The notes beneath the pieces were generated by a model. It did no database searches. It was not told the origin of the DNA and saw only the letters and a list, made by a program, of their open reading frames with translations. Position numbers and translations under genes: made by a program. Positions 3,697 through 30,053 of a stretch of DNA of 32,000 nucleotides are shown here, piece by piece (the first letter of the stretch is position 1; every line of letters starts with the position of its first letter). This stretch comes from Mucisphaera calidilacus (lineage in GTDB: Bacteria; Planctomycetota; Phycisphaerae; Phycisphaerales; Phycisphaeraceae): NCBI RefSeq assembly GCF_007748075.1, contig NZ_CP036280.1, positions 690,001 through 722,000 of the forward strand, read 5' to 3'.

Positions 3697-4770
3697 TCAG
3701 CCGATGGCGACTTCCTTGCCGCCCTGCTCGGCGGACTGGTAGACGCCGTCGAGCATCTGCTGGACCATCAGGCCGTGTTCGGCGGGCGCGATCGTCGGGC
3801 CGTCGTTGATGCAGTGCTCGACGAACTGTCCGAGTTTGAGCGGGAAGTACTCGGGGTAGCTGGTGTCCCGGATCCAGCCGGGCTTGATGTTGAGCATGTG
3901 GCCGTGCTCGTCGGTGCGAACGGTGGCGTCTTCCCAGGTGGCCCCGCCCTTGGTTCCGTAGAGTTCGAAGTCCATCTTGTCCTCGAGGTGACCCGCGAAG
4001 GAGGCCTCGATGTGGATGACGGCGCCGTTCTCGAAGCGGATGGTGCCGACGGCGATGTCCTCGACGGTGTAGGTCTCGTGGTCCCAGCCGGCCCAGGGGG
4101 TGTGGATCTCGGTGGAGGGCTGGTCGCCGATGTAGGTTCGTGTCAGGCCGGTCGCGGCGACGGGCCTGGGCGATCCCATGACGTAGTGGCACTGCTCGAG
4201 CATGTGGACGCCGATGTCGATCATCGGCCCGCCGCCCTGGAGGTCCTTGCGGCCGAAGACGCCCCAGTTGGGGATGCCGCGGCGGCGCAGGGCCTGGACG
4301 CGTCCGTAGAAGATGTCGCCGAAGACACCGTCGTCGGCCATCCGCTTGAGGTACTGGGTGCGGGAGTCGAAGCGGAACTGGAATCCGATGACGAGCTTCT
4401 TGCCGGCGGCGTTGGCGGCGTCGATCATCTGCCGGGCCTCGGCGGCGTTCATCGCCATCGGCTTCTCGACGATGACGTGGGCACCGGCCTTGCTGGCCGC
4501 GATCGAGTTCGGAGCGTGCAGGCCGTTGGGGGTGCAGATGCTCACGGCGTCCGGCTGGATTTTCTCGAGCATCTCCTCGTAGTCGGTGAAGCAGCCCGAC
4601 GAGGGGATGTCGAATTCCTTGGCGCGCTTCACGATCGTGTTCTCGTTGATGTCGGCGAGGCCCACGATCTCGACGGCGTCGATCTTCTTGAGGGCCGTGA
4701 GGTGGTTGCCCGCGATACCTCCGGCACCGATGAGTGCGACGCGGAGATTCTTGTCATTGGAAGCGGTCAT
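3697..4770 (-). CDS. Gfo/Idh/MocA family NAD(P)-dependent oxidoreductase
   Basis: N-terminal Rossmann motif LRVALIGAGGIAGNHL and a family-typical EKPMA motif. The ORF runs to 4896, but the ATG at 4770 (MTASNDKNLRVALIG) places the Rossmann fold at the N-terminus and has a GGAG-like sequence upstream. Confidence 0.8.
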   Translation of the reverse strand: MTASNDKNLRVALIGAGGIAGNHLTALKKIDAVEIVGLADINENTIVKRAKEFDIPSSGCFTDYEEMLEKIQPDAVSICTPNGLHAPNSIAASKAGAHVIVEKPMAMNAAEARQMIDAANAAGKKLVIGFQFRFDSRTQYLKRMADDGVFGDIFYGRVQALRRRGIPNWGVFGRKDLQGGGPMIDIGVHMLEQCHYVMGSPRPVAATGLTRTYIGDQPSTEIHTPWAGWDHETYTVEDIAVGTIRFENGAVIHIEASFAGHLEDKMDFELYGTKGGATWEDATVRTDEHGHMLNIKPGWIRDTSYPEYFPLKLGQFVEHCINDGPTIAPAEHGLMVQQMLDGVYQSAEQGGKEVAIG

Positions 4771-4874
4771 GGTGGTGTGCTCCTGGATGCCCGATAGGGC
4801 AGAAGGTGGGTCGCGGAGTATCGTGTGGACTGCGTCGGTCTGCAAATCGGAGCCGGAAGTATCACAATAGGCAA

Positions 4875-5804
4875 ATGGCTGAACGGAGCGTTCCATCTAC
4901 CGGGGAGATCTGGCTGGTCATCCAGCCTTGGCTGGTCTCGGTCGCGGTGCACGCTCTGCTGGCGGTTTCGCTGGTGTTTCTGATCCAGATCGGCCCGGCG
5001 GGGGTGGCGGGGGTCGAGGTTGTTGAGCCGGAGGAGGCTCCCGTGGTGACACTCTCTGCGGCTCCCGCGCCGCTGGACGCACCGCCCGTGGCGATGGATC
5101 TGGCTCAGGATCTGGGGTTGGCCCCGGCCGACGGTATGGCCCTGGCGCTGGTGCCCGGACCGGTTCCGGGGTCGGTGACGGCCCCGGGGTTGTCGGCGGG
5201 GGCGGTTTCTTCGCCGACGCTCGATTCAGCAGCGTTGCTGGCGACGGTGGACCCGGGGGCGGCCTCGTTTTTCGGGATCGCGGCGCGGTCGAGCCGGGTG
5301 GCCTACGTGGTGGATGCCTCCGGGTCGTCGGCGGCGGACCTGCCCCAGATCCTCGGCGAGCTGCGGAATGCCGTGGCCGGCCTGGACGCCAGCCAGCGAT
5401 TTACCGTGCTGATCTTCTCTCGTGGCGGCGTCGTCGAGGCTCCGCCCGACGGCCTGAAGCCGGCTGATCCGGGGACGATCTCAAGCGTGCGGGCCTGGCT
5501 GAGGATCGATGGCGGCGTGGTTCGACCGGGAGGGCGTTCCGACCCGATCCCGGCCTTCGAGCGGGCCCTGTCGCTGGAGGTCGAGGAGATTCTTTTTCTG
5601 TCGGACGGGCTGAGCGGTTCGATCGGTTCGGACCAGATTCTCGAGCGTGTGGCTGCGGCCAATCGGGGGCGTGCGACGATCCACACCATCCACCTGCGTC
5701 CTGATGCCGACGAAGAGGGGCCGGATTCGATCATGGCCCGTATCGCGGCGGCGCACGGCGGGACCTATCGCGTGGTCAAGCCACCACCCGAGCCGCTGTT
5801 CTAG
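4875..5804 (+). CDS. Membrane-anchored von Willebrand factor A (vWA) domain protein with TonB/TolA-like N-terminal anchor
   Basis: 309 aa counted from the ATG at 4875. The ORF-track start at 4734 would overlap the divergent gene. Single N-terminal helix QPWLVSVAVHALLAVSLVFLI containing S22-x3-H26, then a Pro/Ala/Val-rich linker of about 100 aa. The C-terminal domain carries a MIDAS motif DASGS (D147-x-S-x-S), then FTVLIFS, GGRSD and LFLSDG as in vWA domains. Confidence 0.7.
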   Translation: MAERSVPSTGEIWLVIQPWLVSVAVHALLAVSLVFLIQIGPAGVAGVEVVEPEEAPVVTLSAAPAPLDAPPVAMDLAQDLGLAPADGMALALVPGPVPGSVTAPGLSAGAVSSPTLDSAALLATVDPGAASFFGIAARSSRVAYVVDASGSSAADLPQILGELRNAVAGLDASQRFTVLIFSRGGVVEAPPDGLKPADPGTISSVRAWLRIDGGVVRPGGRSDPIPAFERALSLEVEEILFLSDGLSGSIGSDQILERVAAANRGRATIHTIHLRPDADEEGPDSIMARIAAAHGGTYRVVKPPPEPLF

Positions 5805-5848
5805 CTCGTTACCATCTGATCGATGGCCTGAAACGGAGAGACCGTTCC

Positions 5849-6550
5849 ATGAATGATGTTGTTCAACTTGTGCTCGCTCAGGACCCGGGCGACGTGCCGG
5901 GTGGCGTGATGATGTTCTTTCAGGCCGGCGACAGCTTCGGTCAGGTGATCCTGATCATCCTGTGGCTGATGTCCTTCGTGGGTGTGGCGGCGGCGGTGTG
6001 GTCGTGGACGCGGGCGCGCGGCGAACTCGCTCTGCCGAAGAATCTCGAGCGTGGCCTGCTGGAACCGGCTCGTCGTGGCGATCTACGCGAGGTGCGGTCG
6101 GCGGCGCAGAGCCTGCGGGGTGTCTTCGGCCGGCTGCTGCGTGCGGTAACCGGTTCGCCGGTGGGCGAGGCGGCGCGTCACGCGGCGGACGAGGCGGCGG
6201 GCATCGAGTGGCAGAAGCTGACGCGGCCGGTCGAGGCGATCGCCCTCATGGGCCAGGTGGCCCCGATGGTCGGGCTGTTCGGCACGGTCTACGGCATGAT
6301 CCGGGCCTTTGTGGCGCTGGTGGAGTCGGGCCCGGCGGGTGGTGGCGACCTCAAGCTGGCCGCGGGCATCTCGACCGCGCTGGTCACGACGTTCTGGGGC
6401 CTGGTGGTGGCGATTCCCGCATCGATCATCGCGCAGGTGCTGCTGAGTTCGATCGAGCAGCGGTTGAGTGAGGCGTTGTCGGTCGCTCAGCGGATCGCGG
6501 GGATGATGCAGGGCGGCGATCCGGACGCCGATGCCGACGGACAAGGATGA
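5849..6550 (+). CDS. MotA/TolQ/ExbB family proton-channel protein
   Basis: 233 aa with three predicted TM helices. Family signature GQVAPMVGLFGTVYGMIRAF is present. A GGAG sits about 10 nt upstream of the ATG. Confidence 0.85.
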   Translation: MNDVVQLVLAQDPGDVPGGVMMFFQAGDSFGQVILIILWLMSFVGVAAAVWSWTRARGELALPKNLERGLLEPARRGDLREVRSAAQSLRGVFGRLLRAVTGSPVGEAARHAADEAAGIEWQKLTRPVEAIALMGQVAPMVGLFGTVYGMIRAFVALVESGPAGGGDLKLAAGISTALVTTFWGLVVAIPASIIAQVLLSSIEQRLSEALSVAQRIAGMMQGGDPDADADGQG

Positions 6551-6556
6551 TCGCTG

Positions 6557-7030
6557 ATGGGCGTGCGCTCTCGACACTTCGACCGCAAGCCGCTGACGCT
6601 CCCGTTGACGCCTCTGGTCGACGTGGTGTTCCTACTGATCGTCTTCCTGATGCTGGTGGGTACGCGATTCGAGACGGGTGCCGATGCGGCGCGTCTGCCC
6701 GAGCTGACCCTCCCCGGCGAACCGGCCTATCGGCCGCCCGAGCAGCTGGTGATCGACATCTATGCGGGTGAGGATCCGCTGGACGCGGAGCAGGCCTTGG
6801 TGCGTTATCTGACCGTGGAGGGGACGGCGGCGGAGGCGACAGCCGTTGCCGAATCGGTCGCCGCTGCGCTCGCGCGTTCGCCCGGCGTGCCGGTGCTGGT
6901 TCGAGCCGATGCCGACCTGCCGATCGCGACGGCCCGGCCGGTGCTCAAGGCCCTGCGGGAAGCAGGCGTGGATCGGATCCGGATCGCGGCGACGCGGCCC
7001 CGGCCCGAGATCGAGGGGGGTGACGGATGA
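6557..7030 (+). CDS. ExbD/TolR family protein (paralogue 1)
   Basis: 157 aa with a single N-terminal TM containing the conserved Asp (LTPLVDVVFLLIVFLML, D22) and a periplasmic C-domain. It starts 6 nt after the ExbB-like gene. Confidence 0.85.
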   Translation: MGVRSRHFDRKPLTLPLTPLVDVVFLLIVFLMLVGTRFETGADAARLPELTLPGEPAYRPPEQLVIDIYAGEDPLDAEQALVRYLTVEGTAAEATAVAESVAAALARSPGVPVLVRADADLPIATARPVLKALREAGVDRIRIAATRPRPEIEGGDG

Positions 7031-7503
7031 AGCACCACCGCCAGTCACGCTTCGCCCGTCGCAGCAGTGTCGGCTCGCTGCCGGTGGCGCTGGTCGACGT
7101 CGTCTTCCTGCTGCTGATTTACTTTGTGGTGGCGTTGGACATCACGCCCGACCGTGCCGAACTCGACATGCCGTTGCCTTCGCCGGACCCGGCGGCGGCG
7201 ACGCCCGAGCGGCTACCTGTCCAGCCGATGCGCATCGAGGTGGTGGCGACGGCCGAGGGCTGGGGCGCTACCGTCCCGGGGCGGCTGGGCTACGCGACCG
7301 ATCTGGTGACGTTCAAGCTCGCGGTGGAGCGGCTGGTGTTTGATCCCGAGGCGCGCGGGCCGACGGGTTACGTGATGTCTGAGGACCCGGTGCTGCTGAG
7401 CATGAGTGACGGCCTGCCCTGGGACCTCGCGGTGAACCTCGCCGACGCGGCACGACAGGCGGGGCTGCGGGCCGTGGCTCTCGACCCGGAGGTGCTGCCT
7501 TGA
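7027..7503 (+). CDS. ExbD/TolR family protein (paralogue 2)
   Basis: 158 aa with TM LPVALVDVVFLLLIYFVV and conserved Asp (D24). Its start overlaps the previous stop by 4 nt (ATGA). Confidence 0.8.
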   Translation: MKHHRQSRFARRSSVGSLPVALVDVVFLLLIYFVVALDITPDRAELDMPLPSPDPAAATPERLPVQPMRIEVVATAEGWGATVPGRLGYATDLVTFKLAVERLVFDPEARGPTGYVMSEDPVLLSMSDGLPWDLAVNLADAARQAGLRAVALDPEVLP

Positions 7504-10007
7504 TCCGATGCCTGCTGGTCGTGCTGCTGCTGGTCGGGCTTGTGCGCGCGCAGGAGTTATCCGTTGAGGATCTGACCGAGCAGGTGGAGCGTCAGACCGA
7601 GCGGGTGCGTGACGGACGCGTCTCGGCGGAGGATCGCGAGTCGGCGGTGCTGGAGCGGGTCGAGTCGCTGCGGCAGCTGGTAGTCGGCTTCCCGGAGGAC
7701 GAGGCCTACCCCGAGCACCTCGCGAACTGGGCCGAGGCCGTGCTTTACGAGCGGCTCGGTGCGCTGGAGAGTCTGGCAGTGGTATCCCACGAGTTCGGGA
7801 TACCGACCGAGGCGCACCGTCAGGCGATGGAGCAGACGCTTGGTGAACTGATCGAGCGGCTCGAGGCATTTGATGTCAACGACGACAGTGTCGACGAGCC
7901 GCTGCGCTGGCGGCTGCTGATGTCGTTGGCGACGGCCCGGCACGCGGCGGGGTTCCTGCCGGCCTTCGATCCCGAGGACACGCGCAGTGACGCATTGGTG
8001 GACATCTACCGGATTGTGGATGAGATCGATCACCGGCCGGTGCCTGCGGCTGTCCGGGTGCTCGAGGCTCGGGTCCGGCTGGCGCTGGGGGAGCTGCTTA
8101 CGGCAGGGGAATTGGTCGAGCCGCTGCTCGAGGTGGAGCCGTTGCCGATGGACGGCACCCACCGACTGGCTCAGCTCGTGCTGGCCGATTCGCTGCGGCG
8201 ACGTGGTGAGACAGAGCGCGCGGACGTGGTGGTGGCGGCACTCAGTCGTCGGTTGACCTCGGCTGCCGACGCGGCCTGGCGTCTGGTGATTGCTGATTGG
8301 CGTTACCGGGGACGTCCTGATCTTGAGATCTACCGGCCGCTGACGCTCGCGGGTCCAGGCGTGGCGTGGATCCGTGCCGTGCTCGCCGAGCGGTGGCTCG
8401 AAGCCTATCTCGATGCGTCCGAAGCAGAGATCGCATCGCTCCCGCTCTGGGTCCGGACACAGCTGCTGCACTCGGCGTGGGAGCGGCTGCCGGTTCATCC
8501 CGTCGAGGCACTGGCCTTTTCTTCGTCGGTGATGCTCGGCGACAGCGAGCGCGAGCGGCTGGTCTGGGTGGGACGGCTGGCCCGGATGCTCGCGCAGTCC
8601 ACGGACCTGCTGCACGACGCCAGGCAGGAGGCGGAACGGATCGCGGTGCTTGCCGAGTTTGCACGTTCCGATCGACGTCCCGAGGACGCGGTCGCAGCGG
8701 CAGAGGATCTGTTGGATCTGGCCGAGCGCAAGCGTCGCACGGCCGCCGCGGTGCTGGTGCGTGAGGCCGCGGACCTGCTCTGGCCGCACCAGTCGGCCTT
8801 CGTCACGGCAGACGAAGACCCGCTGACACCCTTGCTGCTCGAATCGATCGGCCGCGTCTTCGCCGAAGCGCCCCGGCTGCTGGCCGACACGCCGAACCAC
8901 GTGCTGATGGTGGCGCATTACATCGACCGGGTGGGCGTCGGAGCGCAGGAGGCCGTTGCGTTCTATCGACGGGTGCCGCTGGAGGCACTGGGCTACTGGC
9001 AGGCGCAGCCGCTGCTGCTGGTCGAGCTGCGTCGTGGGGCGAAGGAGACGATCGATCCGCCGGTGCGTCAGCGTCTGAGGCGTGACCTGCTGCTGGAGAT
9101 GGCGAGGCTGGATGCCGAGGGCGCACGCCAGCTGATGGACGAGGACGCCACGATCGCGCGTCGTGACGGGGCACGCACGGCCCTGTTCCGAGTCCGGCTG
9201 CTGCGTGCCGAACTGGCGGCGGAGGCGGGGGACGTCGCGTCGGGCCAGCGATGGTTGCAGGAGGCCGTTGCGATCGACGGCAGGCCGCGTGCGCGGCTCG
9301 AGGTCGCGGTGGTCCAGACCCGTTTCCTGATCGAACGCGACGACATCGCCGGTGCGCTGGAACGACTGAACCGCCTGCCGGCCCGAGAGTCGGTGGTGCG
9401 GCGTCTGGCGATCGACATGCTCAACCGCGTCGGCAGCCGACTCACGCCTGTCGCACTGCTGGAACTCGACCCGCCCGATGCATCGGTAGAGGTCATGCCG
9501 ACCGACCCCGCAGTGCTCGGGCTGGCCGAGCGGCTCTCCGGACGCAGCGTGGAGCAGATCGATCCCGCGGACCCAGACCCGGCGGCGCAGGCCGAGCTGT
9601 ACGCGGCTCGCCTGCTGCGTGCGCACATGCTGCTTCTGCGTGGTGATGCTGCGGCCTCCGCGACGCTCGCGGGCGAACTGGTCGAGGGCGCGTTCGCGAC
9701 GCCCGAGGTCATCGAGCTGGCGGTGGTGGCCAACCTGCGCGTCGGGACGCGCGTGTCTCTGTTTAACGCCTCGCTGATGGCGGATCGCGTGATCCAGGGC
9801 TACGACGCCCCGCCGTTCCCCGATCGCTGGTGGCGTTGCTGGCTCCGGCGACTGCTGATTCTTGAGCGGCTGCGCGTCGGGGTGGCTCAGGTCCCTCCCC
9901 AGGTCCGGCGGCTCCAGCGGATCAACCCGAACCTCGGCGGGCCGGAGCTCAAGCCGCGCTTCATCGAGCTGGCCCAGAGGGCCTCAACGCCGGCCGCGTC
10001 GGAGTGA
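7500..10007 (+). CDS. Secreted 835-aa all-helical (TPR/solenoid-like) protein of unknown function
   Basis: The TTG start overlaps the exbD-2 stop (TTGA). N-terminal signal peptide MIRCLLVVLLLVGLVRA-QE. The rest is rich in Leu/Ala/Arg/Glu and has no catalytic motif I recognise. Strong GC3 bias supports this frame over the 689-aa antisense ORF. Confidence 0.7.
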   Translation: MIRCLLVVLLLVGLVRAQELSVEDLTEQVERQTERVRDGRVSAEDRESAVLERVESLRQLVVGFPEDEAYPEHLANWAEAVLYERLGALESLAVVSHEFGIPTEAHRQAMEQTLGELIERLEAFDVNDDSVDEPLRWRLLMSLATARHAAGFLPAFDPEDTRSDALVDIYRIVDEIDHRPVPAAVRVLEARVRLALGELLTAGELVEPLLEVEPLPMDGTHRLAQLVLADSLRRRGETERADVVVAALSRRLTSAADAAWRLVIADWRYRGRPDLEIYRPLTLAGPGVAWIRAVLAERWLEAYLDASEAEIASLPLWVRTQLLHSAWERLPVHPVEALAFSSSVMLGDSERERLVWVGRLARMLAQSTDLLHDARQEAERIAVLAEFARSDRRPEDAVAAAEDLLDLAERKRRTAAAVLVREAADLLWPHQSAFVTADEDPLTPLLLESIGRVFAEAPRLLADTPNHVLMVAHYIDRVGVGAQEAVAFYRRVPLEALGYWQAQPLLLVELRRGAKETIDPPVRQRLRRDLLLEMARLDAEGARQLMDEDATIARRDGARTALFRVRLLRAELAAEAGDVASGQRWLQEAVAIDGRPRARLEVAVVQTRFLIERDDIAGALERLNRLPARESVVRRLAIDMLNRVGSRLTPVALLELDPPDASVEVMPTDPAVLGLAERLSGRSVEQIDPADPDPAAQAELYAARLLRAHMLLLRGDAAASATLAGELVEGAFATPEVIELAVVANLRVGTRVSLFNASLMADRVIQGYDAPPFPDRWWRCWLRRLLILERLRVGVAQVPPQVRRLQRINPNLGGPELKPRFIELAQRASTPAASE

Positions 10008-10062
10008 CTACAATCCGGGCCGGGAAGACTTGTTACTGACAGACTGTGAGGAACGACCGTTG

Positions 10063-11130
10063 ATGGATATGCGCACGATTCCCGGCACCGATCTGACCGT
10101 GTCGCTGCTGGCCTTCGGTAACTTCGTGTTCGGCACGAACTGGTGGGGCGACTTCTCCGACGACGAAGCGGTCTCGATTCAGAACCGGGCGGTCGACCTG
10201 GGCGTCACGTTTTTCGATACCGCGCCGGCTTACGGCAACGGCCGGGCCGAACAACTGCTGGGCCGGACGATCCGTGAGATCGGCCGAGAGAAACTGACCA
10301 TCTCCACGAAGTTCGGCTACGACCTCGTCGCTGACCCGGGCGTGGAGGGGTCGCATCGCGAGCGGCGGCAGAACTTCTCGCCAGCCCACGTCCGTCGTGA
10401 GCTTGAGCAGTCCCTGCGTGACCTCGATATCGAGACCATCGACCTCTATCAGGCGCACAACATCAAGCTCGAACACTACGCCGACGAGCTCTTCGAGACG
10501 CTGGAGACGCTCAAGGTCGAGGGCAAGATCCGGCACTGGGGCGTGGCACTCGGCCCGGCGATCGGCTGGCGGGAGGAAGGGCACCAGGCTCTTCTCGAAC
10601 GTAGCGCTGCGACCGTGCAGACCGTCTACAACCTTTACGAGCAGGCCCCCGGCCGGGAGCTGTGCGAGATCGCGACCCAGACCGGGAAGGGGGGTGTGAT
10701 CGCCCGTGTGCCGACCAACTCGGGGATACTCGACGACGAGTTCAAGTCCCCCGATCACAAGTTCGCCCAGAACGATCACCGCAAGTTCAGGGACAAGGCG
10801 TGGCTGGTCTACGGGCTGAAGAAGAACGACATGGTGCGGCCTGTTGCCGAGCAGCTGGGCTTGTCGCTGCGGCAGCTGGCGACGAAGTGGCTCGCGAGTC
10901 AGCCCGGGCTGGTGTCGATCGAGCCGAACATGCTGTCGCTGGAGGACGTAACGGAGTACGCTGCGGCCTGCGCCGGCGACGCGTTACCGGACGCCGTGCT
11001 CAAGCAACTGTCCTCGTGGTACGACGATGACTATGGGCTGGGCGACGAGGCTCATCCCTGCGACATCAAGTCCTCGACGGCCGAGGGCGGTGCGGTCCGA
11101 AGCGATTATCTGGCACCGAGCCTGACATGA
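10063..11130 (+). CDS. Aldo/keto reductase family oxidoreductase
   Basis: AKR-like N-terminus (LLAFGNFVFGTNWWG, FFDTAPAYGNGRAEQLLG) and DLYQAHN. The ATG at 10063 follows GAGGA. The ORF-track start at 9862 overlaps the upstream gene. Confidence 0.8.
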   Translation: MDMRTIPGTDLTVSLLAFGNFVFGTNWWGDFSDDEAVSIQNRAVDLGVTFFDTAPAYGNGRAEQLLGRTIREIGREKLTISTKFGYDLVADPGVEGSHRERRQNFSPAHVRRELEQSLRDLDIETIDLYQAHNIKLEHYADELFETLETLKVEGKIRHWGVALGPAIGWREEGHQALLERSAATVQTVYNLYEQAPGRELCEIATQTGKGGVIARVPTNSGILDDEFKSPDHKFAQNDHRKFRDKAWLVYGLKKNDMVRPVAEQLGLSLRQLATKWLASQPGLVSIEPNMLSLEDVTEYAAACAGDALPDAVLKQLSSWYDDDYGLGDEAHPCDIKSSTAEGGAVRSDYLAPSLT

Positions 11131-11681
11131 GTGACAATCACGCGGAACGGACCGAGGCAGAGCGAAGCGAGTTGACGCGTTATGCGCGGTTCGCGGTTGA
11201 GCAGATGCCTCTTGCTCGCCGTGATGGCGGGACGGTTCATGCCCAGTACATCCGGCCGGCCGACGCGGTGGTGGTTCTGCCCATGTTCGCCAACCGGGAC
11301 GTGATGATGATCCGCAACCACCGGTTTGCTGTGGGGCTGGAGCTCTGGGAACTGCCCGCGGGGACGATCGACCCGGGCGAGGACCCGCTGGTCTGCGCCC
11401 ACCGGGAACTCGAGGAGGAGACGGGATACGCAGCGGTGATCATGGAGCCGGTGACCGACTTCGTCACCTGTCCCGGGTTGTGCACCGAGCGGATCTACGC
11501 TTACATGGCTCGGGACCTGACCGCGTCGGAGCAGAAACTGGATCAGACCGAGCAGATCGTTCCCGAACGTGTGAGTTGGGAACGGGCCATGTCGATGGTT
11601 CAGGACGGGACGATCCGAGACGCCAAGACGATCGCGACGCTTTTGTTCGCGGAGTGCTTTCTGAGACAGGAACTGGGCTGA
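11127..11681 (+). CDS. NUDIX hydrolase (ADP-ribose pyrophosphatase-like)
   Basis: Nudix box GTIDPGEDPLVCAHRELEEETGY (Gx5Ex7REUxEExGU). Its start overlaps the AKR stop (ATGA). Confidence 0.85.
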   Translation: MSDNHAERTEAERSELTRYARFAVEQMPLARRDGGTVHAQYIRPADAVVVLPMFANRDVMMIRNHRFAVGLELWELPAGTIDPGEDPLVCAHRELEEETGYAAVIMEPVTDFVTCPGLCTERIYAYMARDLTASEQKLDQTEQIVPERVSWERAMSMVQDGTIRDAKTIATLLFAECFLRQELG

Positions 11682-12580
11682 TGAGTTTCGAGAACCGGGA
11701 CTATTACCGTGGTGAAGGCGGCGGGGGCTACCGCGGGGGCGGCATGGGCATGGGTGGCGGGCGTTTCTCGGGCGTGGTCAAGTGGCTGCTGATCATCAAC
11801 GTGGTGATCTACCTCTGGGACGGCATCATGCTCAGCAGCGCGCGTGGGCAGATGCTCGCGCTGATCCCGTGGAGCTATTTCTCGGTCGACCTGGCGATCT
11901 ACAACCTGCAGATCTGGCGTTTCATCACCTACCAGTTCATGCACTCGCCGAGCGACTTCACGCACATCCTCTTCAACATGATCGGTCTCTACTTCTTCGG
12001 CCCGCTGCTCGAACGGACGATCGGCAGCCGGCGGTTTCTGGCCTTCTATCTGCTCTGCGGTGTGAGTGGCGCGGTGGTGGCGTCGCTGCTGGGCGCGATC
12101 CCGGGGCTGATTTTTATGCCGCCAGAGATCCCCCTCGTGGGCGCGTCGGGCTCGCTCTTCGGCATCCTCGCGGCCTGCGCGGTGCTCTTCCCGAACATGC
12201 GGGTCATGCTGCTGTTCCCGCCGATTCCCATGACCATGCGCACGATGGCCTTTGTCTTTCTGGGGATCGCGGGCCTGTCGGTGCTCGCCGGGGCCATGAA
12301 CGGCGGTGGTGAGGCGGCCCACCTTGGCGGGGCGCTGCTGGGCTTCGTGCTGATCCGCAACCTGGGCTGGCTGAGCTTTGCCGACGGCGTCTCGCTGGAG
12401 GCATCCAGATCGGCCTTCGCACGCAAGATGGGCGAACTGCAGAAGGAGCAGCTCGCCAAGGAGCAGAAGGAAGTGGACCGCATCCTCGACAAGGTCCGCG
12501 AGAAGGGCCTGCAATCGCTCTCCAGCCGGGAGAAGAAGATCCTGCAGAAGGCAACCGACCGCCAGCGGAAGGCAAGCTGA
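11681..12580 (+). CDS. Rhomboid family intramembrane serine protease
   Basis: Multi-TM core with catalytic GASGSLFG (GxSG) and a downstream AHLGGALLG His. The ATG overlaps the Nudix stop (TGATG). The ORF-track start at 11480 lies inside the Nudix gene. Confidence 0.8.
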   Translation: MSFENRDYYRGEGGGGYRGGGMGMGGGRFSGVVKWLLIINVVIYLWDGIMLSSARGQMLALIPWSYFSVDLAIYNLQIWRFITYQFMHSPSDFTHILFNMIGLYFFGPLLERTIGSRRFLAFYLLCGVSGAVVASLLGAIPGLIFMPPEIPLVGASGSLFGILAACAVLFPNMRVMLLFPPIPMTMRTMAFVFLGIAGLSVLAGAMNGGGEAAHLGGALLGFVLIRNLGWLSFADGVSLEASRSAFARKMGELQKEQLAKEQKEVDRILDKVREKGLQSLSSREKKILQKATDRQRKAS

Positions 12581-14365: not shown

Positions 14366-17300
14366 ATGAACGTGCCTGCCTGGAAGTGGATTCTGGTCCT
14401 CGTGGTGTTCGGGGTGTGCTTTGCGGCTTTCTGGCCGCCCGAGCAGCGGCTCAAGCCGGGTCTGGACCTGGCCGGTGGCACGACGCTGGTCTACACGGTG
14501 GATATCCCCGGCGGTCGTGATCCGGCGCAGGTGATCGACGAGACCATCGACGTCCTCCGAGACCGCATCGACCCGACCGGCACCCGCAACCTCGTCTGGC
14601 GACGCGTGGCCGGCAACCGCGTCGAGATCCAGATGGCCCTCGCCAGCCCCGAGACGCGCGAGCGCCGCGAGGCTTACTACGACCTGCAGGCGCAGGTGCT
14701 CGAACGCAACATCGACCGTCGACGACTCGACGCGGTGGTGCGGCTCGCACCCGAAGCCCGTGACCGAGAGATGCAGGCGATCGCCGGCGACGATCAGCAC
14801 TATTTCGAGAAGCTCCAGCTTTACGCGGCGACGCAGGATTTTGCAGCGGCCCTGCGCGAGCCTTACGAGGCAGCGGTGGCCGCCTTCGAGGAGCAGCAGG
14901 CACGGCTCGACGCGATGCCCGAGGGCAGCGACGGCCGCGCGACCGTCGAGGCTCGCGTGGATGACCTGTTCGAGGCGATGCAGGAGGCGACCCGAGCCTA
15001 TCTCGAAGCCCGCACCCAGCGTGACGAGGCCCGTGCCGCGGTGCTCGCAGCCAACATCGAGCCTTACGAGATCCAGCGGGTCCTCGATCAGCCGACACGG
15101 CCCATCGATAACGATGACCCCCAGGGCCCGACCTACCGCGGCGTCGCAGAGGAAGAGATGATCGCGGCCCACGACGACCGCGCCGAAGTTCTCGAGAAGC
15201 TCTTCGAGGCCTGGACGGCCTACGAGGCGGTCAAGGGCCCGCTCGACGACCCTAACGACCTGATCGCTCTGCTCCGCGGCTCCGGCGTGCTCGAGTTCCG
15301 CATCGCCCCTTACGTCGATGAGATCCCCGCGGAGACCTACCTCGAGCAGCTGCGTGAACGCGGCCCGCGCGCGGGTGGCGATCAGCCGTTCCGCTGGTTC
15401 GAGGTCGACGAGCCGGAAGACTTCGAGCCGGACCCGCAGACGCTCGTCACCGAGTACGCAGGCAACCAGTACATCCTCCTCTCGAACACACGCGACAAGG
15501 CGCTGACCAAGGACACCGAGGGCTGGCAGCTCGTCTCCACCTCGCCGACGCAGGACAATGTCGGTCAGCCGGCCGTGGCCTTCACGCTCAACGACTTCGG
15601 CGGCCAGCTGATGTCGCAGATCACCGGCCCGAATCAGGGCAAGCCGATGGCGATCATCCTCGACAACCGGGTGATCTCGGCTCCGACGCTCCGCAGCAAG
15701 ATCGGTGCGCGGGGCATGATCTCCGGCGGCACGGGCGGCTTCAACCAGCAGGAACTGACCTACCTGATCCGCACGCTCAAGGCCGGCTCGCTTGAGGGCC
15801 AGCTCAGCGAGTACCCCGTTTCGATCAAGACGACCGGCTCCGCGGCCGGTGCCGACAACATCGCCAAGGGCACCTCGGCGGCGCGGCTCTCGCTGATCGT
15901 CGTGAGTGTCTTCGTCCTGCTCTATTACCTCGTACCGGGAATCGCGACGACGCTCGCGCTGGCGTTCAACATCGTCATCATCCTTGGCGTGATGGCCATG
16001 CTCGGGGCGACCTTCACCCTGCCGGGTATCGCGGGCATCGTCCTCACCATCGGTATGGCGGTCGACGCCAACGTTCTGATCTTCGAGCGCATCCGCGAGG
16101 AGCTTCAGGACAAGAAACGCGAGCTGATGATTGCGGTGCGCAACGGCTACGACAAGGCCTTCTCGTCGATCCTCGACGCCAACCTCACGACGCTGCTGAC
16201 CTGCGTCATCCTCGGCGCGACAGCGACCTCGGACATCAAGGGCTTTGCCTACACGCTCGGCATCGGCATCGTGGCCACGCTCTTCACCTCGCTCTTCGCC
16301 ACCCGCGTGTTGATTGAACTCTACCTCTCGCGTGTGCGCTCCCTGCCCATGCTCACGCTGGTTTTCCCGTTCATCCGGACCCTTCTCCACCCGCGTCTCG
16401 ACTGGATCGGGCTGCGCTGGATGGTGCTCCCGCTCTCGATCACACTCGTCAGCTGGGGCGTCTGGATGGTCAACGAGCGTGGTGAGGACCTCCTGGACAT
16501 CGAGTTCCGCTCGGGCACGCAGGTGAGTTTCACGCTCAGCGACGAGGGCATGATGGAAAACGCCGAGGCTCGAACGCGCGTCGAGGCGCTCGGCGAGGTC
16601 TCGCGGGCCATGAAGGCCGAGGGCTTCGACCCCGCGTCGCTGTCGCCCGTGCAGTCCGAGCTTCTCCCCGTCGTGGCCGGCATCGAGCAGGACTCCGCCG
16701 ACCGGGTCGCCCGGCAGATGGCCGACTACGAGCAGTCGATCGAGGAGGGGCTGACCGCCGAGGCCCCGGGCAAGCCCGCCGACCTCTCGCTCCTGATCGG
16801 GGCCGCGGTCGTTCCCGAGGGTGACATCGAGGGCACCCGGGCATCGGGCTTCAGCGTCTCGTCGCTGATCACCGACGCCGACGCTGTTTCGGCCGCGGTC
16901 AAGGCCGCCTTCGCCGACGTGCTCGACACCACACGCCCGATCCGCTTCGCCGATTCGGGCATCCGCTCGGTCGGGCAGGCACCGGTCTTCGCCATCGCGG
17001 AGTCGGACGGTGAAGTCGCGACGCTTGGCGACAACATCGGACGCCCGGAGGTGACCACCGACGTGACCGAGTTCCTCGGCGGTGTGGCGATCGTCCTCGA
17101 TGACCTCCAGCCGCCCGCGACGCTCGACGACCTCGAGCAGCGCATCGAGCGCATGCGGCGACAGCCGGCCTACGAGCCGCTCGGCTTCCGCGAGTCGATG
17201 GTGATCCCGCTCGACCTGTCGGAGCAGACCACCGAGGACGGCACGCCGCTCTACGACGCGGTGGTGGTGGTGACACGCGACGAGACAACCAACTACGCCG

Positions 17301-18199
17301 AGGACCCCAGCGGCATCGTCGAGACCGACGGGCTGGCCGACACCGAGTGGAGCCTCGTTGTCGATGCCCTGAGCCGGGACACCTCGCTCAACTCCGTCAG
17401 CAACTTCTCGAGCCAGGTCGCCTCCTACCTGCGTAACAACGCCATCGCAGCGGTCCTGCTCTCGATGGTCGGTATCGTCGCCTACATCTGGATCCGCTTT
17501 GCCGGCTTCGACAAGGGACTCGCCGCGACCGCGGTGCTCGCGTTGGCGACATTCGCCGGCGGCCTGGGCCAGCTCGTGATCGCCCAGTGGCTGGGGATCG
17601 CCGTGCGTGGCGAGGGCTTCTGGATCCTGCTCGCGATCGCGGTCACCCCGCCCGCGCTGGTGCTCGGCATCGTGACGTGGTACTTCCCCGCGCTCCGCTA
17701 CGGCCCCGCGGCCATTGTCGCGCTCGTCCACGACGTGACGATCACCCTTGGCGTGGTGGCGACCGCCGGCTGGCTCTACCAGCGGCCCGAGCTCGACTGG
17801 CTGGCCCTGACCGACTTCAAGCTCAACCCTGCGATGATCGCCGCCATGCTCACCATCGTCGGCTACTCGCTCAACGACACGATCGTCGTCTTCGACCGCA
17901 TCCGCGAGAACCGCGGACGCCTGCCCTACGTCACCAAGGCGATCATCAACGAGTCGATCAACCAGACGATCTCGCGAACGATCCTGACCTCATTCACCAC
18001 GTTCCTCGCCGTCTGGGTGCTCTACTACTTCGGCGGCGACGCGGTGCACGGCTTCGGCTTCGCCATGATCATCGGCGTCCTCGTCGGTACTTACTCGTCG
18101 ATCGCGATTGCGGCTCAGCTCCTGCTCATCGGCCGACGACCGGTCGGCGATGAGGCTCCGCCCGAGGACAAGCTCCCGCCGATCGTCAGCGAGCGCTAA
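14366..18199 (+). CDS. secDF: Fused protein-export membrane protein SecDF (unusually large, 1277 aa)
   Basis: SecD N-terminal TM plus GLDLAGGT motif. SecD TM bundle with GMAVDANVLIFERIREE. SecF bundle with VALVHDV and GYSLNDTIVVFDRIRE. It follows tgt-yajC as in the classical operon. Confidence 0.9.
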   Translation: MNVPAWKWILVLVVFGVCFAAFWPPEQRLKPGLDLAGGTTLVYTVDIPGGRDPAQVIDETIDVLRDRIDPTGTRNLVWRRVAGNRVEIQMALASPETRERREAYYDLQAQVLERNIDRRRLDAVVRLAPEARDREMQAIAGDDQHYFEKLQLYAATQDFAAALREPYEAAVAAFEEQQARLDAMPEGSDGRATVEARVDDLFEAMQEATRAYLEARTQRDEARAAVLAANIEPYEIQRVLDQPTRPIDNDDPQGPTYRGVAEEEMIAAHDDRAEVLEKLFEAWTAYEAVKGPLDDPNDLIALLRGSGVLEFRIAPYVDEIPAETYLEQLRERGPRAGGDQPFRWFEVDEPEDFEPDPQTLVTEYAGNQYILLSNTRDKALTKDTEGWQLVSTSPTQDNVGQPAVAFTLNDFGGQLMSQITGPNQGKPMAIILDNRVISAPTLRSKIGARGMISGGTGGFNQQELTYLIRTLKAGSLEGQLSEYPVSIKTTGSAAGADNIAKGTSAARLSLIVVSVFVLLYYLVPGIATTLALAFNIVIILGVMAMLGATFTLPGIAGIVLTIGMAVDANVLIFERIREELQDKKRELMIAVRNGYDKAFSSILDANLTTLLTCVILGATATSDIKGFAYTLGIGIVATLFTSLFATRVLIELYLSRVRSLPMLTLVFPFIRTLLHPRLDWIGLRWMVLPLSITLVSWGVWMVNERGEDLLDIEFRSGTQVSFTLSDEGMMENAEARTRVEALGEVSRAMKAEGFDPASLSPVQSELLPVVAGIEQDSADRVARQMADYEQSIEEGLTAEAPGKPADLSLLIGAAVVPEGDIEGTRASGFSVSSLITDADAVSAAVKAAFADVLDTTRPIRFADSGIRSVGQAPVFAIAESDGEVATLGDNIGRPEVTTDVTEFLGGVAIVLDDLQPPATLDDLEQRIERMRRQPAYEPLGFRESMVIPLDLSEQTTEDGTPLYDAVVVVTRDETTNYAEDPSGIVETDGLADTEWSLVVDALSRDTSLNSVSNFSSQVASYLRNNAIAAVLLSMVGIVAYIWIRFAGFDKGLAATAVLALATFAGGLGQLVIAQWLGIAVRGEGFWILLAIAVTPPALVLGIVTWYFPALRYGPAAIVALVHDVTITLGVVATAGWLYQRPELDWLALTDFKLNPAMIAAMLTIVGYSLNDTIVVFDRIRENRGRLPYVTKAIINESINQTISRTILTSFTTFLAVWVLYYFGGDAVHGFGFAMIIGVLVGTYSSIAIAAQLLLIGRRPVGDEAPPEDKLPPIVSER

Positions 18200-28064: not shown

Positions 28065-28358
28065 GGAGTTCCTTCGGGTTGCGTTCGACGGCAGAGGCGG
28101 CACAAGCAGCCCGGCTGGAAGGAGAGTCAGCAACCGTGTGGAACGCGCGGTCGGCCGGGTAGTGCGGGGCTAGCCCGACGGTGGCCGCCAGTGGGGAATC
28201 TAGTACTGTACCATAAATCGTCCATCAGTAGGGATTGTCGCCATAATTCACGGCCTGAGCGCGGTTTAGTGTCACTTTTCTGATTTGTGTTGGAGTCTTT
28301 CCTGCGAGCGGCTACGCTTCAACCTCGGGAAGATTCATTCAAGGAACGAGGAAGAAAC

Positions 28359-30053
28359 ATGGGTATGAAATCGCTCAGTGTCGCCGCGTCGCTCCTGATC
28401 ACCGGCGGTTACGCCCTGGCTCAGACCAACCCGATCATCCCGGTTGTCCCGAAGACGCCCTGGAAGGTCGTGCTCGAAGAGGTCGTCACCATCCCCGACA
28501 GCCTGGGTACCTACCCGCGACTGGAGGAACTGACCCACGCCCCCGGTTCAGACGACGCCTTCGTGCTCGATCAGAACGGCACCATCTACCGCTTTGATCC
28601 CTACGCGGCCAACCCGACGCCCCAGGTCTTTCTTGATCTCAACAGCGCCGTACCCGCCGGTTTCAGGACCGGTTCTCAGGAGGGCCTGCGCGGTCTTGCC
28701 TTCCACCCCGACTTCGCCACACCCGGAACCGACGGCTACCGCAAGTTCTATACATCCCACAGCCGCAGCGCGTTCACGGGCATTTACTTCGGCGACGGCG
28801 TGACACCCGTCATCTACGGCGCACCCGGCGGTGTCGATCACGACGCCTACGTCGCCGAGTGGAGCGTCAACCCCGACGGCAGCGTCGACACCGATTCGTA
28901 TCGCGAGATCCTGCTGGTCGGGCAGCCCCGAGCCGACCACAACATCGGCCAGATCGGGTTTGACCCGACCGCGCAACCGGGCGAAGACGACTACGGCAAT
29001 CTCTACATCACGCTGGGCGACGGCGGCGGACCCAATGACCCCAGCAATCTCGCCCAGAACACCAGCCAGCCCCACGGTTCCATCCTCCGCGTCGACCCGC
29101 TCCGCAACGGCAGCGACCCCTTCAGCCTGCCCGACAATCCACTGCGCACCAGTGACTCGCTCACCAACGCACGCAACCTTATCTATGCCTACGGCGTCCG
29201 AAACCCGCACAAGTTCACGGTCGATCCGGTGACCGGCAACTTCATCTTCAGCGACATCGGTCAGGCGAACATCGAGGAGATCAACATCCTCGAGCCGGGA
29301 GCTAACTACGGCTGGGACCTGCGCGAGGGCACCTGGACCCTCAACAGCAGCAACGTCCCCGGCACCCTCCCACCCAACCACCCCACCGACTCGGCCACCT
29401 ACCCCGTCGCCCAGTACGACCACGACCCCGAGAACGACGGCGTCAACGGCTCCTACGCCGTGGCAGGCGGGCACGTCTACCGCGGCAGCAGCGTGCCCGA
29501 ACTCACCGGCATGTACCTGTTTGGCGACTTCGGCACCAACCCCGGACCGATCTACGCCGTCGACGCTGACGACCTCACCCAACGCGATGACTTCACCGAC
29601 ATCGATCAGATCTTCGGCGGGTATCTCGCTCCGCTTGTTGAACTGACGCTCAACACCGAGGGCGACGCGACCGACAAGACCTTCCTCGACATCGTCAAAG
29701 AGACCAACCCCTTTATCCCACGCACCGACCTGCGCTTCGGCATCGACGCGGCGGGGGAGATCTACATCCTTTCCAAACGCGACGGCAAGGTCCGACGCAT
29801 CAGCGCGGTCATCGGGCTGCTCGCCGGCGACGCCAACCGCGACGGGATCGTTGACCTGCTGGACCTGAGCCTCCTCGCCTCCGGCTTCGACGGGCCCGGC
29901 GACTGGGGCTCAGGCGACTTCAACGCCGACGGGCTGGTCAATCTGCTCGATCTCAGCCTGCTCGCCAGCAATTTCGGCCAGACCTCCATCCCCCAGCCCG
30001 CCGTCGGGTTGATCATGCTCACGATGCTCTCGGGGTTCCGCCGCGGGGCCTGA
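28359..30053 (+). CDS. Secreted PQQ-dependent (glucose/sorbosone) sugar dehydrogenase-like beta-propeller with C-terminal dockerin repeats and PEP-CTERM-like anchor
   Basis: Signal peptide MGMKSLSVAASLLITGGYALAQ. Family motifs HNIGQIGFDP, LYITLGDGG and YAYGVRNPHKFTVDP...IGQANIEEINILEPGANYGW. Two dockerin-like repeats (DANRDGIVDLLDLSLLAS and DFNADGLVNLLDLSLLAS). The tail reads IPQPAVGLIMLTMLSGFRRGA. The ATG at 28359 follows AAGGAACGAGGAAG. Confidence 0.8.
   Translation: MGMKSLSVAASLLITGGYALAQTNPIIPVVPKTPWKVVLEEVVTIPDSLGTYPRLEELTHAPGSDDAFVLDQNGTIYRFDPYAANPTPQVFLDLNSAVPAGFRTGSQEGLRGLAFHPDFATPGTDGYRKFYTSHSRSAFTGIYFGDGVTPVIYGAPGGVDHDAYVAEWSVNPDGSVDTDSYREILLVGQPRADHNIGQIGFDPTAQPGEDDYGNLYITLGDGGGPNDPSNLAQNTSQPHGSILRVDPLRNGSDPFSLPDNPLRTSDSLTNARNLIYAYGVRNPHKFTVDPVTGNFIFSDIGQANIEEINILEPGANYGWDLREGTWTLNSSNVPGTLPPNHPTDSATYPVAQYDHDPENDGVNGSYAVAGGHVYRGSSVPELTGMYLFGDFGTNPGPIYAVDADDLTQRDDFTDIDQIFGGYLAPLVELTLNTEGDATDKTFLDIVKETNPFIPRTDLRFGIDAAGEIYILSKRDGKVRRISAVIGLLAGDANRDGIVDLLDLSLLASGFDGPGDWGSGDFNADGLVNLLDLSLLASNFGQTSIPQPAVGLIMLTMLSGFRRGA

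Follow-up and report, generated by a model that had tools for sequence, protein, structure and literature searches.

The stretch of DNA analyzed here, referred to as the window, comprises 32,000 nucleotides of Mucisphaera calidilacus (Phycisphaerae, Planctomycetota; contig NZ_CP036280.1, positions 690,001 to 722,000 of the forward strand), and its positions 4875-10007 carry five co-directional open reading frames (ORFs) on the + strand, as read from the ORF list and the sequence. The first, a putative force-transducer gene (4875..5804), encodes a 309-aa protein with an N-terminal transmembrane anchor, a disordered Pro/Ala-rich linker and a C-terminal von Willebrand factor A (vWA) domain. It is followed by the gene of an ExbB/TolQ-family stator subunit of 233 aa (5849..6550), those of two ExbD/TolR paralogues of 157 aa (ExbD1, 6557..7030) and 158 aa (ExbD2, 7027..7503), and a gene with a TTG start (7500..10007) for a secreted 835-aa alpha-solenoid resembling tetratricopeptide repeat (TPR) proteins. 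The TAG stop of the vWA gene (5802-5804) and the ATG of the ExbB gene (5849) are separated by 44 nt and the TGA of the latter (6548-6550) and the ATG of ExbD1 (6557) by 6 nt, the stop of ExbD1 overlaps the start of ExbD2 in the ATGA at 7027-7030, and that of ExbD2 overlaps the TTG start of the last gene in the TTGA at 7500-7503. This is the arrangement that a previous reading of the letters alone (the sequence-only reading) had described, gaps and overlaps included, and translational coupling within the cassette is indicated by the two 4-nt overlaps. We consider it likely that the locus encodes a trans-envelope machine of the Ton/Tol class, whose transducer bears a vWA head instead of the C-terminal domain of TonB or TolA.

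The three central genes encode a recognizable stator. The ExbB protein matched Pfam MotA_ExbB (PF01618, gathering score 22.9) with 84.1 bits and contains the pore motifs GLFGTVYGM and STALVTT. It stayed below the NCBIfam equivalog cut-offs of both TolQ (59.5 bits vs 221) and ExbB and is equidistant from the solved chains of the two proteins; it could thus be placed in the ExbB/TolQ family but not with either of the two, and the name ExbB is used here in the sense of the family. The NCBIfam TolR equivalog likewise gave 29.8 against a cut-off of 127. ExbD1 and ExbD2 matched Pfam ExbD (PF02472, gathering score 25.4) with 56.8 and 35.2 bits, respectively, and phmmer searches of PDB sequences returned no matches for either of them. 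The transmembrane Asp is kept in both (D22 in ExbD1 and D24 in ExbD2), as the sequence-only reading had noted, and it is retained in all 108 ExbD ORFs of the related loci described below (105 found by regular expression and three by eye). Given this conservation, and the order ExbD1-then-ExbD2 that is kept in 43 of 51 loci with two ExbD genes, the paralogues form an old and fixed pair.

The protein encoded ahead of the motor genes is 100% identical to the NCBI entry 'vWA domain-containing protein [Mucisphaera calidilacus]'. Its ORF is nested in a longer one (4734-5804), and the N-termini of its orthologues speak for the ATG at 4875 as the gene start. The transmembrane helix (4899..4988, + strand; residues 9-38, PWLVSVAVHALLAVSLVFLI) carries a TonB/TolA-type pattern, S22-x3-H26-x6-L33, so that three of the four motor-docking positions of the SHLS motif are matched, with Ile37 instead of Ser at the fourth. 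S22 and H26 were invariant in the first alignment (A2) of vWA homologues. Across the related loci, SxxxH was found within a hydrophobic helix in 71 of the 85 vWA ORFs that bear a recognizable metal ion-dependent adhesion site (MIDAS) motif, 107-185 residues (mostly 107-135) upstream of the MIDAS, and inspection by eye added a few further homologues with SxxxH, TxxxH or AxxxH. Basic residues precede the helix in the orthologues, which suggests an N-in, C-out topology as in TonB. The presence of a TonB-like anchor in the transducer slot, as the sequence-only reading had put it, is thus borne out.

An AlphaFold2 (AF2) model of the vWA protein, built from nine sequences, comprised a confident transmembrane helix over residues 9-38, a disordered stretch at residues 41-128 with a predicted local distance difference test (pLDDT) score below 50, and a confident alpha/beta domain at residues 130-301 with a pLDDT of about 90. 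The disordered linker was delimited to residues 39-129 (4989..5261, + strand; about 90 aa), and the linkers of the vWA homologues have a median length of 100 aa. About 30 residues past the Ser of the motif lies a conserved segment (APVVTLSAA at residues 55-63 in the window), with the column-conservation consensus P-[PV]-[VI]-[LI]-[VT]-A-[DT]-[FLW] in 67 sequences. By its sequence, this strand-like segment, in which residues 56-63 align with the consensus, is a candidate for the 'motor box', a strand known from TonB and TolA; the monomer AF2 model has no strand there. The vWA domain itself (5262..5777, + strand; residues 130-301) contains the MIDAS residues D147-x-S149-x-S151, S222 and D244, and position 222 is Ser or Thr in 66 of 67 aligned sequences. 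Its sole Pfam match was VWA_3, whose 24.3 bits fall slightly short of the gathering score of 27; the profile searches proposed by the sequence-only reading therefore recovered MotA_ExbB and both ExbD domains, and neither TonB_C nor TolA, but left the vWA domain just below threshold. Foldseek comparison of the model with the PDB gave as top matches the vWA domains of ITIH4, ITIH1, CMG2/ANTXR2, calcium-channel alpha2delta and integrin I, with E values from 2.5e-10 to 1e-5, and the vWA fold is confirmed at the level of the predicted structure.

The last gene product, 100% identical to an NCBI protein of Mucisphaera calidilacus, had been taken for an ORFan. Searches of Pfam and NCBIfam with the 835-aa protein gave no match, and a word-indexed search found only three orthologues besides itself. 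A profile search of 1.84 billion cluster representatives, however, returned 100 at E<=1e-3 and 43 at E<=1e-10, mostly of 850-1000 aa and best matched over the C-terminal 120 residues, and a local jackhmmer search also placed the protein in a family. Four homologues (P0016, P0018, P0020 and P0092) pass the Pfam thresholds of TPR_14 or TPR_19. The AF2 model (mean pLDDT 74.5) consists of about 40 helices in series and matched the TPR solenoids CTR9, TTC7B, SKI3, TFIIIC (E values for these four from 4e-7 to 1e-4) and IFT-A in the PDB, with low template modelling (TM) scores, which are to be expected since solenoids are flexible. The protein is therefore no ORFan; it is a member of a diverged, fast-evolving family that is probably of the TPR type. 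Its description as secreted and all-alpha was correct: a predicted signal peptide spans approximately residues 1-18 (MIRCLLVVLLLVGLVRA|QE) and lacks a lipobox, and the orthologues are alike. In pairwise BLASTP against the counterparts in loci L002 and L006, the similarity detected was confined to the C-terminal 60 residues. This end of the protein holds the signature of the family (9828..9962, + strand; residues 777-821), formed by W777-W778, L785, R804-L805, N/D809, L812-G813-G814 and F821; in a 53-sequence alignment, W778 is conserved in 53, L805 in 52 and G813 in 50 sequences.

Pfam and NCBIfam scans of the cassette and of 21 other ORFs across the 32-kb window found no TonB_C, TolA, TolB, Pal or TonB-dependent receptor domain, in agreement with what had been noted from the sequence. 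The transducer slot of the cassette is occupied by the vWA protein.

Relatives were collected with a back-translated pattern, for which each GTDB species was represented by one genome, and the best 80 loci of 233 relatives were retained; nearly all of these 80 belong to Phycisphaerae or other Planctomycetota. Their ORFs were called by a crude longest-ORF procedure in high-GC DNA, so some N-termini are over-extended, and were searched with the window proteins and an iterated profile of the 835-aa family; overlapping-ORF artefacts and a few gene orders were corrected by hand. Gene orders were counted in the 53 species-level loci with at least 5.5 kb of sequence downstream of the vWA gene. One or more vWA genes followed by ExbB, ExbD, ExbD and TPR genes were found in 38 of them, the vWA gene directly followed by the TPR gene and no motor in seven, the motor without a recognizable TPR gene in three, and the vWA gene alone in five. 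The conserved neighborhood of the vWA and 835-aa families with exbBD, which the sequence-only reading had left to be examined, is thus present, and in Phycisphaerae these vWA proteins are predominantly found within the cassette. Since dozens of species-level genomes repeat this gene order, the five-gene arrangement is not due to chance. Even a distant metagenomic relative with 32% identity (P0006) has the same five genes. In addition, 47 of the 80 loci (for instance L053:5623-6300), and also L002 (7116-7991) and L006 (189-956), have a co-directional gene for a DoxX-family membrane protein directly upstream of the vWA gene, so that the usual cassette of Phycisphaerae consists of six genes; neither the Mucisphaera calidilacus window nor the other Mucisphaera locus (L011) contains it.

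The five stand-alone vWA homologues among the 53 loci are 760-1070 aa long and have neither SxxxH nor a motor, and the absence of the motif thus tracks the absence of an adjacent motor, which argues for coupling between the two. The homologues P0008 (L001) and P0009 (L005) also stand alone, and linkage to the motor is not universal. The seven motorless vWA-TPR loci (L027, L031, L038, L077, L083, L086 and L088) keep SxxxH, and L006 does likewise; for these loci, a motor encoded at another site is therefore probable, just as E. coli has its tonB apart from exbBD. The vWA and TPR genes together appear to be the conserved core of the cassette.

The same loci have to be weighed with regard to the main rival explanation, by which the genes are co-located and not coupled. 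The motor would then serve a canonical TonB or TolA encoded elsewhere, and the vWA and TPR proteins would form an independent Bat-like complex (BatA/B vWA and BatC/E TPR) that shares the operon. The vWA-TPR pairs devoid of motor genes (the seven loci and L006) speak in its favor, as do the unlinked tonB of E. coli and the scope of the TonB_C scan, which was that of the 32-kb window. However, the anchor helix keeps SxxxH in most homologues, motorless loci included, no motor adjoins the long vWA homologues without SxxxH, the junctions overlap, and 38 species-level genomes share the order. It must also be considered that VWA_3 is the only Pfam match of the vWA protein, and that no BatA-type domain and no AAA/MoxR-type ATPase domain were found in the window ORFs scanned, for which reasons a Bat (aerotolerance) operon was rejected as an identification of the locus. 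We therefore judge co-location without coupling to be unlikely.

Proteins of this kind have been defined as "vWA force transducers" in a recent study (Mol Biol Evol 2025;42:msaf138, PMC12204202): they are tethered to the inner membrane by an SHLS-bearing transmembrane helix and have a disordered linker, which carries a motor box, and a vWA head. Their genes adjoin tolQ, two heterologous tolR and a TPR gene, and they were reported from Proteobacteria, Planctomycetes, Verrucomicrobia, Bacteroidetes and Rhodothermaeota (PMC12204202). In AlphaFold 3 models, the His of the transducer binds the motor at the site used by TonB and TolA; the work is purely computational and reports no phenotype (PMC12204202). 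The statement of the sequence-only reading that no characterized system joins a Ton/Tol-type motor to a vWA domain is thus literally true, but the architecture had already been described and the idea is not new. The layout was published in 2025, and the locus reported here is a further example with its own gene order, TPR partner and intact MIDAS.

The relationship was assessed with a seed protein rebuilt from the supplement of that study, the seed locus (L091) being that of Tichowtungia aerotolerans. Profiles of the window family matched all three Tichowtungia vWA transducers with 38-54 bits, co-linearly from the transmembrane helix to the middle of the vWA domain; as a control, the best generic vWA protein of the PDB reached 33 bits over the vWA core only. 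Comparison of the window family with the seed by hhalign gave a probability of 95.9% (E 6e-9), and 94.6% in a second comparison, and BLASTP gave 6e-6. The co-linear profile matches indicate that the window protein is a distant member of the vWA force transducer family. Both systems combine a transmembrane helix with SxxxH, a disordered linker, a vWA head, one tolQ/exbB gene, two different tolR/exbD genes and a large TPR-type gene. They differ in gene order, which is vWA-Q-R-R-TPR in the window and TPR-(262 aa)-Q-R-R-vWA-vWA in the seed locus, so the TPR gene lies on the opposite side of the motor. Moreover, only one transducer is encoded in the window, and its 309 aa include a complete DxSxS MIDAS, whereas Tichowtungia has three paralogues of 474-781 aa with a degenerate MIDAS (ILDADK). 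Most Phycisphaerae relatives also have the additional DoxX gene upstream. The third Tichowtungia transducer (L091:2267-4612, 781 aa) has one SxxxH anchor and two tandem vWA-like modules, and upstream of it lie the gene of another large TPR protein and an ORF of 110 aa. The second family of the same study, TPH-vWA, with an Asp-bearing trans-pore helix and tolQ only (PMC12204202), was considered for the window protein and rejected, its transmembrane helix being devoid of Asp and two exbD genes being present.

If the locus encodes a Ton/Tol-class machine with a vWA-headed transducer, its operation can be outlined as follows. A pentamer of ExbB around an ExbD1/ExbD2 heterodimer would convert proton flow into rotation, and the transmembrane helix of the vWA protein would dock on the outside of the pentamer through His26, as in TonB and TolA. 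The strand after the helix (the 'motor box') may touch the periplasmic part of ExbD, and the linker would cross the periplasm. Through its metal site, the vWA head would then hold an acidic residue on some partner close to the outer membrane, and this partner would be pulled by the work of the motor. The co-encoded periplasmic TPR protein would be the most likely direct partner or scaffold, and it is favored because its gene stays beside the vWA gene even where motor genes are lacking. Envelope tethering, uptake and surface adhesion are possible processes served.

Several points weigh against this interpretation. The support for transducers of the vWA kind is all computational, that of the published work included, and the contacts of the transmembrane helix with ExbB and of the vWA head with the TPR protein are deduced. 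The cassette encodes no outer-membrane component, and the absence of a canonical TonB holds for the 32-kb window. Positions +11 and +15 of the SHLS motif are mostly Ala, Ile, Val or Thr across the vWA family. The pattern used to collect the relatives required YVVD[AM]SG, and the MIDAS conservation among the 80 loci is biased for this reason. Position 244 is variable among the relatives (Thr, Asp or Ser in the 67 sequences), which together with the degenerate MIDAS of Tichowtungia implies that metal-dependent binding may not be essential to the family. Lastly, homology of the 835-aa family to the Tichowtungia protein TPR938 was rejected, with an hhalign probability of 0.6% and no match by hidden Markov model.

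With respect to the classical systems, the cassette shares with Ton a 5:2-type motor driven by the proton-motive force and a transducer with an N-terminal transmembrane helix of the pattern S-x3-H-x6-L, a Pro-rich periplasmic spacer and a globular C-terminal head. It differs in having no TonB_C (PF03544) or TonB_2 domain, no TonB-dependent receptor nearby, two ExbD paralogues instead of one, and an ExbB below the NCBIfam ExbB cut-off. Since the transducer lacks TonB_C, beta-augmentation onto a TonB box is not expected. With Tol-Pal it has in common the motor, a transducer anchored by a transmembrane helix, and a periplasmic TPR protein in the operon (CpoB in Tol-Pal). However, the window lacks genes for a TolA C-terminal domain, TolB and Pal, and its TPR protein has 835 aa against the approximately 260 aa of CpoB, to which it is unrelated in sequence. 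No Pal was found in Planctomycetes (PMC12204202 supplement), and a substitute for Tol-Pal is therefore plausible in this phylum.

The nearest experimentally studied analogue is the Agl-Glt machinery of Myxococcus xanthus, which links a TolQR-type motor, indirectly, to the vWA adhesin CglB (PMC11761067). It likewise builds on a TolQ-type pentamer and a heterodimeric TolR-type pair, has transducers whose transmembrane-helix tether is combined with a long disordered linker, includes a TPR protein of the periplasm and ends, on the output side, in a vWA domain; the respective parts are the AglRQS motor with the heterodimer AglQ/AglS, the transducers GltG/J (linker of about 124 aa), GltC and CglB. 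In Agl-Glt, however, the vWA domain is part of an outer-membrane lipoprotein that is distinct from the transducers and is displayed by beta-barrels, and TonB_C domains are found on the transducers, whereas in the window the vWA domain is fused to the transducer itself and no outer-membrane parts are encoded nearby. By a second rival explanation, the cassette would be a minimal adhesion or gliding machine of this type, whose motor moves or unmasks a vWA adhesin for attachment or motility. The combination in M. xanthus of a TolQ/TolR-type motor (AglQ/AglS), tethered transducers, GltC and CglB is in line with this, and gliding has been raised as a possible role of vWA transducers (PMC12204202). 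Against it, a tether of just about 90 residues links the vWA domain to the inner membrane, a lipoprotein signal is missing, neither the cassette nor the window encodes an outer-membrane beta-barrel or a secretion component, and no Glt homologues were detected. With such a tether, and with neither a lipoprotein signal nor an outer-membrane component, surface exposure of the vWA domain is hard to see, and we hold a machine of this type to be distinctly unlikely.

Finally, a Zorya-like anti-phage defence on a MotAB/ExbBD-type stator, for which a weak PADLOC match of ExbB to ZorA (15.7 bits, E 0.0013) could be adduced, is effectively refuted, as the other four cassette proteins had no PADLOC match, the cassette is surrounded by housekeeping genes (for example those of DAHP synthase and ketoacyl synthase) whose chromosomal synteny is conserved, ZorC/D-like nuclease or helicase genes are absent and ExbB lacks the long tail of ZorA.

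A likeness of fold was also noted with PflA and PflB of Campylobacter jejuni, the scaffold of the flagellar stator ring, in which a large periplasmic TPR solenoid occurs with a stator of the MotA/ExbB class. Chains 9hmf_K and 9hmf_L were among the Foldseek matches of the 835-aa model, but the similarity is at the fold level only (TM scores of about 0.17-0.20) and the window has no flagellar context.

TonB and TolA were long the only known routes by which proton-motive energy of the inner membrane reaches the outer membrane. A vWA-headed transducer would give this motor a third kind of output module, which binds by another chemistry, and the locus of Mucisphaera calidilacus, on an assembled contig of 3.49 Mb, would be a compact, single-transducer version of it with an intact MIDAS, in a phylum for which no Pal is reported (PMC12204202). 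The present results add to that study the dominance of the cassette in Phycisphaerae, a TPR family with a fixed C-terminal signature, the motorless vWA-TPR pairs and the usual presence of DoxX. It may be speculated further that the (DoxX)-vWA-ExbB-ExbD1-ExbD2-TPR cassette of Phycisphaerae represents a third functional class of Ton/Tol systems, in which a MIDAS grip takes the place of beta-strand augmentation, the ligand is the C-terminal WW...RL...D-x-LGG module of the TPR protein, and the machine replaces Tol-Pal in outer-membrane tethering or constriction in Planctomycetota, which lack Pal; as a whole, this proposal seems to us fairly unlikely. Mutagenesis could be directed to H26 and D147/S149/S151 of the vWA protein, D22 and D24 of the ExbD proteins, and the WW/LGG module of the TPR protein.

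Other architectures were observed among the related loci. Long vWA homologues with very long Pro/Thr-rich regions are encoded in L022 (5880-8771), L026, L030 (5340-8546), L051 (6504-8795) and L087; they have no adjacent motor or TPR gene and represent another architecture within the same vWA clade. In L017, L018, L020, L024, L029, L032 and L059, two or three vWA paralogues stand in tandem ahead of the motor, and in one paralogue type Tyr replaces the docking His (L032:5431-6570 and L059:7587-8762). L017 also has, between the vWA and ExbB genes, a secreted helical ORF of 369 aa with no Pfam match (10055-11164). On the minus strand, L013 (340-4511) and L014 (296-4467) contain a second ExbB-ExbD pair followed by a canonical TPR protein of 849 aa (TPR_6, 90 bits); this set is placed about 4 kb upstream of the vWA cassette and on the opposite strand. 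An Omp85/BamA-type protein with five POTRA repeats is encoded in L079 (13134-15650), about 3 kb downstream of a cassette without a recognizable TPR gene.

The surroundings of the cassette in the window are of a housekeeping nature. A divergent GFO/IDH/MocA oxidoreductase gene lies upstream, and its start is most likely near 4770, so that it does not overlap the vWA gene; aldo-keto reductase, NUDIX hydrolase, rhomboid protease and Tgt genes follow downstream, and the remaining genes include those of SecDF, GlnE, GlnA and a DEAD-box helicase. A scan of positions 4400-10400 found no sigma-70 promoter, and the terminator-like hairpins fall inside genes and were judged to be due to chance. The G+C content of positions 5001-10000 is 0.68-0.71, against 0.62-0.65 in the flanking kilobases, an excess that is probably a consequence of Ala/Pro/Arg-rich proteins rather than of a foreign origin. 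The single ORF of 1277 aa at 14366-18199, with SecD/SecF C-terminal domains in three stretches and a SecDF P1 head, is apparently a fused SecDF. One ORF at 28287-30053 joins a glucose/sorbosone dehydrogenase (GSDH) to a dockerin type I domain at the C-terminus (22.7 bits, marginally below the gathering score of 22.9), a pairing that is unusual for a planctomycete. The rhomboid protease gene (11480-12580), three genes or about 1.5 kb downstream of the cassette, encodes a C-terminal DUF6576 and gave a sub-threshold rhombosortase match.

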